This document shows, one piece after another, positions 2,796 to 41,460 of a stretch of DNA of 44,622 nucleotides. The position numbers and the translations under genes are program-made. Where the stretch lies: the sequence record OZ035754.1; one strand, given 5' to 3'. Numbering within the stretch: position 1 is the first letter of the stretch; every line of letters begins with the position of its first letter. This DNA comes from Kagunavirus BCH953P1. Under the pieces are notes generated by a model. The model was not told where the DNA came from. It saw only the letters and a list, made by a program, of their open reading frames with translations, and did no database searches.

Positions 2796-3872
2796 ATGCT
2801 ATTAACTTTAGCGCCACAGGGTTTATCTATGAGATTACTTACATCCCTAATCAGCCACCAGATTTGGCTGCAACGCACCGCATCGGGCGAAGTGAAAGAC
2901 CTTGCGCCTTTCATTAAGGAGATGCGGGACGAAATCAAACGGCAGGTGCTGCTGTTCGGTGACGATGGGCGTAGCACCGCGCGACTGAATAAACTGTTAC
3001 GCGACCTGGAAGAAGCACTGAGCGGACTTACGGGCGACTGGCAAACAAAGCTGACGGAAGACCTTAAGGAACTGGCGGAGTATGAAGCAGAGTGGAACGT
3101 AAAAACGCTGACGGCTAACGTTAACGCGGAATTTGTTACACCCGCCGCCGAGCAGGTGTGGTCCGCTGCCGAGTTTCAGCCTCTGTCGCTAAGCGACAAG
3201 CCTGTCGATTTCACCAAGCTGATGTCGGACTGGGGTGAAACGGAGGTTGCGCGCCTGGTAACTGGTGTTAAGATGGGTTTCGTACAAGGGCAAACCACAC
3301 GGCAGATTGTTAAGAATGTTGTAGGCGCTGGCGGACTGGCCGACATCTCAGAACGTAACGCAGCTACCGTAATCCGCACCGCGCTGTCGCACGTATCCAA
3401 CGAAGCCCGTAACGAGACGTACCGCCAGAACGACGACATCATCGAGAAATACGAATGGGTATCAACGCTGGACAGCCGTACCAGTACGATTTGCAGAGCC
3501 AGAGACGGAATGACGTGGGAAATCGGTAAAGGGCCGATGCCCCCCGCCCATCCGAACTGTCGATCGTGCACGGCACCGGTAATCAGTTCAGAGTTCGATT
3601 TCCTGGATAAAGGCGCGAAACGCGCAGCTAAGGGCGCAGAAGGTGGTACTCAGGTAAGCGCAGACACCACTTACTACGAGTTCCTGAAACAACAACCGGC
3701 ATGGTTTCAGGACCAGGCTCTCGGGCCAACCCGCGGTAAGATTTTCCGCAACAGCGGTATATCGCCGGAGGAGTTTCGCGTAATATCTGTAGATGGTTTC
3801 GGGAATCCGCTCACGCTTAAGCAGATGGCGGAACTCGATAAACGTGTTGCTGATTATCTGAAAGGGGAATAA
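2796..3872 (+). CDS. head morphogenesis protein (MuF / SPP1 gp7-like)
   Basis: 358 aa after portal; conserved gene order; start uncertain (alternative ATG at 2829). Confidence 0.65.
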   Translation: MLLTLAPQGLSMRLLTSLISHQIWLQRTASGEVKDLAPFIKEMRDEIKRQVLLFGDDGRSTARLNKLLRDLEEALSGLTGDWQTKLTEDLKELAEYEAEWNVKTLTANVNAEFVTPAAEQVWSAAEFQPLSLSDKPVDFTKLMSDWGETEVARLVTGVKMGFVQGQTTRQIVKNVVGAGGLADISERNAATVIRTALSHVSNEARNETYRQNDDIIEKYEWVSTLDSRTSTICRARDGMTWEIGKGPMPPAHPNCRSCTAPVISSEFDFLDKGAKRAAKGAEGGTQVSADTTYYEFLKQQPAWFQDQALGPTRGKIFRNSGISPEEFRVISVDGFGNPLTLKQMAELDKRVADYLKGE

Positions 3873-3955
3873 TGATGGGCTTTTTCAAAGTAACTGATTC
3901 CTAAGGGTAGAGGCGGTAAGCAAGGCGGCGAAGGTTACTAAGCCAGAATGATATG

Positions 3956-3985
3956 AGGCCCCGTTAAGGGGCCTTAGTTTTATTT
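3956..3985 (+). terminator. rho-independent terminator (aggcccc-gtta-aggggcct then T-rich)
   Basis: GC hairpin followed by tagttttattt; sits after the head morphogenesis gene and overlaps the 3' end of the minus-strand ORF 3964..4200. Confidence 0.55.
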
Positions 3986-4200
3986 AAAGAATATCGCGAA
4001 CTTCTTGTAACCCGCTGGCTCGTTGCGCTGACCATGTTCGATAGCAAAACGTTGAACGTTGTTAAAATCGTTCTCTTCCATACCGTCGGTGCAAAAGGTA
4101 AAAAAAAGTTACGTTTGTTTCCGATAAGCACACGGCTCGCAACATCAATGCTGTAAAGTTCTTCGATAGCGCGTACCACGTTTGCAGTAGCTTTGTTCAT
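3964..4200 (-). CDS. hypothetical small protein (78 aa as read; contains an internal A8/T8 homopolymer, alternative frame possible)
   Basis: Track ORF; reverse-oriented inside the structural block; preceded by conserved promoter P1; C-terminal half runs into the terminator hairpin. Confidence 0.4.
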   Translation of the reverse strand: MNKATANVVRAIEELYSIDVASRVLIGNKRNFFLPFAPTVWKRTILTTFNVLLSNMVSATSQRVTRSSRYSLNKTKAP

Positions 4201-4235
4201 TTCTAAATTCCTTATCTCTCGTTTCGATGTAATGA

Positions 4236-4264
4236 ATAGTACCCTATTATATTGGGGTGCGCAA
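4236..4264 (-). promoter_or_regulatory. sigma70-type promoter P1 (TTGCGC-N17-TACTAT), B-family
   Basis: On minus strand TTGCGCACCCCAATATAATAGGGTACTAT; identical over about 33 nt to the copy at 13781..13809; immediately upstream of the minus ORF 3964..4200. Confidence 0.6.
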
Positions 4265-4539
4265 ACTGTTTATTCACCTATTTCAGTTATTCCACTTGAT
4301 TGTAAATGTCGGAATAAACTATTCGAATAGTTGACTTTTCACTGAAAATATGATAAGCTCCACCTGAGCTTGTGAAGTATGAACAAGCGACCGCGGCGCG
4401 GGCAGGTAACGGAGCGGGACGTAAGTCCTGAGTGTAGTTACGCTGACGCGTTCGGAAGGGTCATACTATATTGCTTGTGTAAAAAGTAACTGGTTTACTG
4501 AGATTACGCCGTTTCTATGTTTAAATGATAAGGACTAGC

Positions 4540-4567
4540 GCCCCGCTTTACGGCGGGGCTTTACTTA
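4540..4567 (+). terminator. hairpin (gccccgc-tttacg-gcggggc) followed by tttactta
   Basis: Seen directly; lies just upstream of the spanin gene start. Confidence 0.4.
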
Positions 4568-4583
4568 TCGAGAAAGGAGAAAC

Positions 4584-4970
4584 ATGAATCTTAAAGCAAC
4601 TGTCGTAGCAGGAGCATGTTTCATCGTCCTGGCTTACGCACACGGCATCTACCAGTATCGCAGCGGCTGGAACGAAGGCCGGGCGAATCTCGTTTCGCAG
4701 CAACAGCAGAAGGCGCAGGCTGAGTTAGCGAAGAAAACACAACGGCAGCAGCAGGACGAATCAAAGGCTGCCGCTGCTGACAACGAAGGCAAGACGAAAT
4801 CAGAGGTGATTACCCGTGAAGTCGTTAAGTACATTAAAACGCCTGGCCGCAGCGTGTGCACTTTTGACCCTGAGCGCGTGCAGCTCAAGTCCCGCGCCGT
4901 CGCAAACGCAAATTCCATCCCCGGATACGACGATGATGCAGCCACCGTGCAAACTGGCACCGCCAAGTAG
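4584..4970 (+). CDS. i-spanin (Rz-like inner membrane spanin)
   Basis: 128 aa; N-terminal TM segment (VVAGACFIVLAYAHGIY), Q-rich coiled-coil middle; SD AAAGGAGA; contains the embedded o-spanin ORF. Confidence 0.65.
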   Translation: MNLKATVVAGACFIVLAYAHGIYQYRSGWNEGRANLVSQQQQKAQAELAKKTQRQQQDESKAAAADNEGKTKSEVITREVVKYIKTPGRSVCTFDPERVQLKSRAVANANSIPGYDDDAATVQTGTAK

Positions 4971-29837: not shown

Positions 29838-29890
29838 CGTGATTTCTCGCTTTTCAGTTTACTCCGGGAACTGCCCGGCCAGTGATTAGA

Positions 29891-36394: not shown

Positions 36395-36464
36395 AGTTAC
36401 AAAGTAATAAGAATAAAGGCACGACCCTGCCTGAAGAATCACAACGGCAACGTAACTATTCTCT

Positions 36465-36493
36465 TGCACACCCCAACATAATAGGATACTATT
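36465..36493 (+). promoter_or_regulatory. sigma70-type promoter P6 (TTGCAC-N17-TACTAT), B-family
   Basis: TTGCACACCCCAACATAATAGGATACTAT; near-identical to P1/P2; 25 nt upstream of the first plus-strand early gene. Confidence 0.6.
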
Positions 36494-36517
36494 CACTTAT
36501 CGTAACGAGACAGAGGA

Positions 36518-41427: not shown

Positions 41428-41460
41428 ATCCCGGCCCTGACCCAGCCGGGATTTTTTTTT
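41428..41460 (+). terminator. rho-independent terminator (atcccggc-loop-gccgggat then T9)
   Basis: GC stem followed by nine T, seen directly after the endolysin gene. Confidence 0.75.

Follow-up and report, generated by a model that had tools for sequence, protein, structure and literature searches.

Does a run of eight identical bases within a small gene of a Kagunavirus reflect programmed slippage, a tract that changes length among phages, or an error in a single sequence record? The window considered here, i.e. the whole analysed stretch of 44,622 nucleotides (OZ035754.1), is a complete Kagunavirus genome (Guernseyvirinae). Eight A on the plus strand (AAAAAAAA) at 4100-4107 correspond to T8 in mRNA sense and lie inside the minus-strand open reading frame (ORF) 3964..4200, exactly as the initial annotation had described. 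The tract and its immediate surroundings comprise the following features.

4100..4107, minus strand: T8 homopolymer (mRNA sense), a length-variable tract; the T8 allele places U_UUU_UUA in the register for a -1 shift
3964..4200, minus strand: ORF as present in the window, 78 aa; residues 1-33 form the N-terminal half native to the Ip9-like protein and the remainder is out-of-frame read-through into the terminator hairpin
3980..4099, minus strand: conserved C-terminal coding segment (TFCTDGMEEN...FAIFFK, then TAA at 3980-3982), with purifying selection in the T6/T9 frame only
4209..4213, minus strand: Shine-Dalgarno-like AAGGA, 8 nt 5' of the ATG at 4198-4200, read from the sequence; the 5' leader is common to the early-locus copy of Bas70
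3954..3976, no strand assigned: GC-rich hairpin TGAGGCCCCGTTAAGGGGCCTTA, common to the convergent head-morphogenesis gene (2796..3872, plus strand) and the cassette gene (minus strand)

The ORF as present in the window translates into 78 aa (MNKATANVVRAIEELYSIDVASRVLIGNKRNFFLPFAPTVWKRT...KAP), and its stop codon at 3964-3966 sits within the hairpin at 3954-3976. The alternative frame runs from the tract to the TAA at 3980-3982, 3 nt outside the hairpin stem, and reads ...TFCTDGMEENDFNNVQRFAIEHGQRNEPAGYKKFAIFFK. The C-terminal coding segment joins the N-terminal half in frame only with T6 or T9, and one extra T (T9) gives a product of 73 aa. Both endings agree with the initial annotation, which had the annotated frame running into a terminator hairpin and a -1-shifted or 9-T frame ending near 3980, outside the stem. 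The hairpin has a good T-tail on the plus strand only. Taking a clean end before the terminator as a guide to coding pointed to the correct frame, but the heuristic is weak because a terminating ribosome overlaps the hairpin in both frames.

Homology searches with both products favour the frame that the window does not read through. The 73-aa T9 product matches PHROG 7673 ("internal head protein") with residues 2-73 over profile positions 20-90 of 90 (E 6e-22), whereas the match of the 78-aa T8 product is limited to residues 2-34. Full-length homologues in the T6/T9 frame were recovered by tblastn in 169 phage records, about ten of them other Kagunaviruses (71-77% identity) and the others T4-like phages with a gene named Ip9. 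Downstream of the tract, the window and three relatives differ by 12/5, 6/2 and 13/8 synonymous/nonsynonymous codons in the T6/T9 frame. The corresponding counts against the same relatives are 1/16, 0/8 and 1/21 in the frame read with T8; hence selection does not maintain the last 45 residues of the 78-aa ORF as protein. This zero-frame extension has a homologue only in one other T8-allele product, P0017. The comparisons support the T6/T9 frame as the genuine one, with the 78-aa ORF a probable artefact of tract length. The earlier proposal that the shifted or 9-T frame is real is thus borne out by the end-to-end match to PHROG 7673, the 169 homologues and an A9 tract in the nearest relative. 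Homologues keep the T6/T9 frame rather than the T8 frame, and tracts in related genomes read T6, T7, T8, T9 or TTCTTT, with no fixed 8-nt run. In annotation, the 78-aa ORF should be treated as a frameshifted version of a conserved gene of 72/73 aa rather than as a protein, and 3964..4200 deserves a flag for a frameshift or a low-quality homopolymer.

The conserved frame gives the gene a recognizable identity. P0001, a T9-allele homologue 97% identical to the frame-corrected product of the window, shares 44-53% identity over the mature domain with Ip9 of T4-like phages (RB15/K3/IME08; PHROG 7673), and the invariant G-N-K-R, R-F-A and L-R-x-E positions of the Ip9 family are kept in the Kagunavirus protein. 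However, T4-like Ip9 carries an N-terminal leader of 18-20 residues starting MKTYQEFIAE, and the Kagunavirus protein lacks it. Positions 1-19 of the PHROG 7673 profile are unmatched by the Kagunavirus product, and the first residue of the Kagunavirus proteins aligns directly behind the leader of IME08, RB15 and RB33 Ip9. MKTYQEFIAE is the T4 internal-protein capsid-targeting sequence, followed by a prohead-protease site. Ip9 of IME08 reads MKTYQEFIAESILNEEVKINKS... and is encoded between 57B and the tRNA cluster, the hyperplastic internal-protein locus of T4. T4-like Ip9 is thus located in the 57B-tRNA internal-protein locus, whereas the Kagunavirus gene stands behind its own early promoter. 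Because the protein starts right after the leader and has its own early promoter, it is presumably made in the cell and not injected. The Kagunavirus protein is, as far as sequence comparison can tell, a homologue of the Ip9 mature domain and should not be filed as an internal head protein because the capsid-targeting leader is absent. In Kagunaviruses, the Ip9 family of injected proteins of T4-like phages also occurs as a leaderless first gene behind an early-type promoter.

A confident AlphaFold model (pLDDT 90) predicts a small alpha-beta-beta-alpha-beta-beta fold in which the Phe run opens strand 2. Pfam yielded no match for the T8 or the T9 product, a PDB sequence search returned none at E up to 10, and Foldseek against PDB found nothing at E <= 0.001. 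The fold search of BFVD gave one match, an unnamed 535-aa viral protein that is uninformative, and the fold searches therefore provide no link to a known anti-restriction fold. The internal proteins Ip1, Ip2 and Ip3 of T4 each inhibit different GmrSD type IV restriction enzymes, while ten further T4-like ip genes assayed against additional GmrSD systems revealed no new inhibitory interaction (PMC12373910). A counter-defence role of the Ip9-like protein is a reasonable guess by analogy with these proteins.

The position of the gene in the window is unusual compared to other Kagunaviruses and is best followed through copies of a promoter element.

4233..4264, minus strand: conserved promoter element of 32 nt, TTGCGCACCCCAATATAATAGGGTACTATTCA, recognized from repeats and from its position in relatives; the same stretch is annotated 'promoter' in phage fBC-Eco01
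13778-13809, minus strand: promoter-element copy, recognized as a sequence repeat
36464-36495, plus strand: promoter-element copy, which precedes the Ip9-like gene in other Kagunaviruses

The third copy of the element is 91% identical. The putative promoter hexamers are TTGCGC (-35) and TACTAT (-10), separated by a 17-nt spacer. A simple sigma-70 scan flagged no promoter for the cassette gene, and the assignment is for this reason based on the recurrence of the 32-nt element and on where it stands in relatives. In Bas70 and similar phages, the Ip9-like gene is the first behind the promoter element TTGCACACCCCAACATAATAGGTTACTATTCA at ~36.6 kb. The promoter at 36464-36495 of the window instead runs directly into the next gene, and the Ip9-like gene is absent there. 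A promoter copy (4233-4264), the same 5' leader and the gene are found reversed after the head-morphogenesis gene, in accordance with the earlier description of the gene as sole cargo of a reverse-oriented promoter cassette. The promoter and gene at 3964-4264 look like a relocated promoter-gene cassette, and the Kagunavirus gene would thus move between genome positions in this form.

The slot into which the cassette would have moved (3873-4583) extends from the MuF-like head-morphogenesis gene to the next structural genes, and its cargo differs among Kagunaviruses. Annotated cargo includes a DNA polymerase III beta/sliding clamp, a Dam-type methylase and endonuclease VII, and five more distant cassettes (L008-L012) carry an additional ORF of 153 aa adjoining the Ip9-like gene. 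The slot appears to be an accessory-gene hot spot. On the plus strand of the window, the stretch 4331-4566 starts with a promoter-like TTGACT, 17 nt and TAAGCT (with TG one base upstream), followed by ~200 nt that hold no convincing ORF, then by a strong terminator at 4540-4559 and a gene at 4584. The stretch folds better than shuffled sequences (z = -2.26), and the 5' part (4214-4350) is kept in many Kagunaviruses, where it is mostly unannotated. The region 4331-4566 could be a small RNA or a structured leader; an Rfam search over 3800-4700 gave nothing relevant. A metagenome contig with the T9 allele (L007) has a Pfam Tad2-like match (PF11195, anti-Thoeris family) at 1-226, in the gene at the opposite end of the locus, ~2.8 kb from the cassette gene, where other relatives have an Ig-like/Hoc-like gene. 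The Tad2-like gene may be another swapped counter-defence gene.

The mere presence of an 8-nt tract is statistically not unusual. The genome contains two homopolymer runs of at least 8 against ~2.1 expected from base composition, and shorter runs are rarer than expected (2 vs ~8.2 for runs of at least 7; 17 vs ~33 for runs of at least 6). What exceeds chance is that the tract is the sole indel in 23.5 kb compared to the closest genome, and that four lengths occur among near-identical cassettes. The closest record is Kagunavirus BCH953P1 (OZ035805.1, the record meant by BCH953P1 throughout), with 99.9% identity over 1-23525, 19 mismatches and one gap. The single gap over this range is the tract at 4100-4107, with A8 in the window and A9 in BCH953P1. 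The second and last indel in the near-identical parts is a T9 at 41452-41460, which is T10 in BCH953P1.

The runs at 4100-4107 and 41452-41460 are the only two of at least 7 in the genome. The T9 at 41452-41460 follows a hairpin (CCCGGC...GCCGGG), resembles the tail of an intrinsic terminator and is apparently non-coding, and the stretch carries no annotated feature in most of the relatives listed. Alignment lengths suggest one base fewer in some relatives, which together with the T10 of BCH953P1 makes this a second length-variable tract. A 14-bp indel is found at 29856 of the window (29905 of the BCH953P1 sequence, L002), where AGTTTATATTTCAA is present in BCH953P1 and absent from the window. 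An AGTTTA beside the indel repeats the first six bases of the inserted block, and the event looks like slippage between short direct repeats.

Further alleles were obtained through protein-cluster searches and exact look-ups in metagenome and isolate assemblies, and occupy the same genomic slot. The comparison covers the promoter-to-terminator cassette (about 540 nt) in seven independent lineages.

T6: L015 and L016; 72 aa, in frame
T7: L005, identical to L006; 45 aa, out of frame
T8: the window, and L003, identical to L004; 78 aa, out of frame
T9: BCH953P1 and L007; 73 aa, in frame

The seven cassettes show 0-4 substitutions over this length, with tracts of T6, T6, T7, T8, T8, T9 and T9, i.e. 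out of frame in three of the seven lineages. The 6-kb flanks diverge where they were compared (282-663 mismatches in a 7.3-kb alignment). The lineages are different phages with a recently exchanged common cassette. The T7 allele and the T8 allele outside the window were each found in two separately deposited or assembled records of identical sequence. The cassette haplotype GGTCAG is shared by the window (T8) and BCH953P1 (T9), and the haplotype GGCCTG occurs with T6, T7, T8 and T9. The presence of T8 and T9 alleles on both haplotypes implies repeated length change, at least four times. More distant cassettes (L008-L012) have T6 or an interrupted TTC TTT, and the early-locus copies in other Kagunaviruses have TTC TTT at the tract position. 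Among 25 aligned family members, only the T9 allele has a third Phe inserted into the GNKRN-FF-F motif, which is invariant otherwise, and T9 is therefore derived. Beyond Kagunaviruses, the T4-like Mosigvirus FL31 (Escherichia phage, PP400782.1; L017 385-392) carries T7 instead of the T6 of its relatives at the homologous Phe-Phe codons, and the Ip9 homologue of FL31 is annotated as two short coding sequences. FL31 would represent an independent frameshift, or an error, at the same site in another phage family. Exact-pattern scans of IMG/VR and JGI metagenome contigs for the tract with its 5' flank found no further copies, and the cassette had no megablast match among complete E. coli genomes. 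The 78-aa product of the window itself, looked up exactly, led to no contig, although a protein cluster includes a member of this length from an NCBI contig of 44,622 bases.

We suggest that the tract is a replication-slippage hot spot in a small, dispensable and mobile early gene, and that the T8 of the window is a real slippage allele. We consider this the probable explanation, with room left for the alternatives below. Among the three mechanisms initially offered, the evidence points most to a length-variable tract and away from programmed slippage, and a sequencing error in the single record retains some share of the probability. The comparisons above directly show the reading frame, the homology, the allelic series, the relocation of the cassette and the pattern of selection. 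In the relocated-cassette lineage, the ancestral codons TTY TTT (Phe-Phe) would have become an unbroken T6 that later grew to T9, adding one Phe without loss of frame. Slippage by single bases would then shift the tract among T7, T8 and T9. In one lineage, an unstable T-run would thus have arisen within the motif that is most conserved in the protein. Runs of 9 A/T are reported to be prone to transcriptional slippage and to be likely hypermutable because replication slips on them; 9 nt is a frequent threshold for slippage on A/T runs (Baranov et al. 2005, PMC1088944). We infer that T8 is the true sequence of the phage, that replication slippage is its origin and that any rescue of the frame is at most trace. 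The dispensability of the gene is likewise deduced from the survival of out-of-frame alleles in assemblies.

At T8, the gene would yield the 78-aa product with only the first 33 residues native. The best reading is that the gene in the window is OFF or strongly hypomorphic. Expression would be driven by the early promoter copy within a promoter-gene-terminator cassette that lies in reverse orientation, with the head-morphogenesis gene on one side and the downstream structural genes on the other. Full-length protein might still arise as a small fraction if RNA polymerase adds one U in the U-run, or if ribosomes shift by -1 on U_UUU_UUA. For comparison, an apoB allele with an 8-A run gives about one tenth of full-length product (PMC1088944). 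Both leak routes, through RNA polymerase and through the ribosome, are regarded as incidental because the site is unconserved, the zero-frame tail is unselected, no significant structure lies downstream and U_UUU_UUA is reported to be weak in E. coli. If the ON/OFF variation is unselected, the locus would offer a clean case, from nature, of a homopolymer drifting stepwise within a dispensable gene of a phage.

The phage could alternatively carry T9 (or T6) in truth, with one homopolymer base lost from the record and an intact gene. We regard such a sequencing or assembly error as a possibility to be kept in mind, though a doubtful one. Both indels in the collinear, 99.9%-identical parts fall at the two longest homopolymers, each one base shorter in the window than in BCH953P1, and shortening in the same direction (A8 vs A9; T9 vs T10) is the pattern of homopolymer under-calling. 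The rest of the gene also carries no other lesion. However, all 15 six-base runs agree with BCH953P1 where the two genomes are collinear, which argues against general homopolymer noise. The T8 allele recurs in an unrelated Kagunavirus background on which the ENA and Logan assemblies agree, and T7 was found in a third background in two records (NCBI, Logan). The reproduction of T7 and T8 in other backgrounds indicates that out-of-frame lengths appear to exist in nature.

A real slippage allele might also be selected rather than tolerated. Growth of the tract from T6 to T9 would then have been favoured by a benefit to the phage from switching an early protein rapidly between ON and OFF, and T8 would be the OFF phase of a reversible switch. 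We consider such a contingency locus improbable. An equally improbable elaboration is that, in a mobile early counter-defence gene, a T9 run keeps ON and OFF variants in the population as a hedge between hosts. Such a hedge may pay if some hosts require the protein whereas others detect it or make it costly; the protein might, for instance, counter one host defence and trigger or fail against another. The stepwise series T6-T7-T8-T9 on one haplotype and the homoplasy of T8 and T9 across haplotypes are suggestive at most, in a sample of seven lineages only, and the same pattern is expected if a dispensable gene decays neutrally at a mutable tract. The T4 relatives Ip1, Ip2 and Ip3 are specific GmrSD inhibitors and provide an arms-race context, yet this did not extend to a new GmrSD interaction for the ten further ip genes (PMC12373910). 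If the variation proves selected, the locus would represent phase variation of a counter-defence gene in a lytic coliphage. Unless switching proves to be selected, the locus is of modest general interest.

Programmed recoding, in which T8 would be a functional design to make the 73-aa protein at a set ratio beside the 78-aa zero-frame product by a ribosomal -1 shift or RNA polymerase slippage, is very unlikely given the T6, T7 and T9 of near-identical cassettes, the TTCTTT of distant homologues and an unselected zero-frame extension (1/16, 0/8, 1/21) whose sole homologue is P0017.

Known recoding sites share some features with the tract. T8 followed by A creates U_UUU_UUA in the needed register (zero-frame codons UUU UUA), which fits the slippery pattern X_XXY_YYZ and is identical to the heptamer of the HIV-1 shift site, and a -1 shift would enter the conserved frame as in HIV-1-type sites. 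The Kagunavirus site differs in having no suitably spaced stimulatory structure, no conservation of the site and a heptamer reported as weak in E. coli, where U_UUU_UUA is described as much less shift-prone than A_AAA_AAG (PMC5009743). A stimulatory structure 5-9 nt downstream was absent when the 126 nt from the tract onward were folded (z = -0.47 vs shuffles); only a weak hairpin of 9 pairs, 3 of them G-U, starts 1-2 nt past the heptamer. No GGAGG-like element was seen upstream of the tract on reading the sequence, and the homologues have no conserved shift site or two-frame layout.

Transcriptional slippage at 9A/9T runs, as in IS elements, Thermus dnaX and Shigella mxiE (PMC1088944, PMC5009743), similarly involves a run close to the 8-9 U seen here, where one added U restores the conserved frame, and runs of 8-9 A/T give productive slippage in some bacteria and genes (PMC1088944). 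Cases of utilized slippage keep both the run and the two-ORF layout among homologues, whereas the Kagunavirus gene keeps neither: no run of ~9 A/T is conserved, and most homologues are in frame without slippage. The 'savior' type of compensated indel, exemplified by the G7 run in herpes simplex thymidine kinase (Atkins et al. 2016, PMC5009743), is comparable in that a viral accessory gene loses its activity through an indel within a coding homopolymer, while low-level slippage could leave a trace of product. The thymidine kinase case is set apart, as no selective agent or residual activity is known for the Kagunavirus gene.

A further comparison is with contingency loci. Sorensen and colleagues reportedly described phage-encoded hypermutable polyG tracts in Campylobacter phages (2021, Cell Rep 35:109214), which would serve as a phage precedent for tracts of this type. 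The Kagunavirus tract differs from these in being poly-T, short (6-9) and located in an early gene of a virulent coliphage rather than in a receptor-binding gene. The resemblance is that a mononucleotide run within an ORF varies in length between near-identical genomes and sets the reading frame. With an in-ORF tract that varies among close genomes and occurs in both in-frame and out-of-frame states, the Kagunavirus tract behaves, at the level of sequence, like a contingency-type homopolymer.
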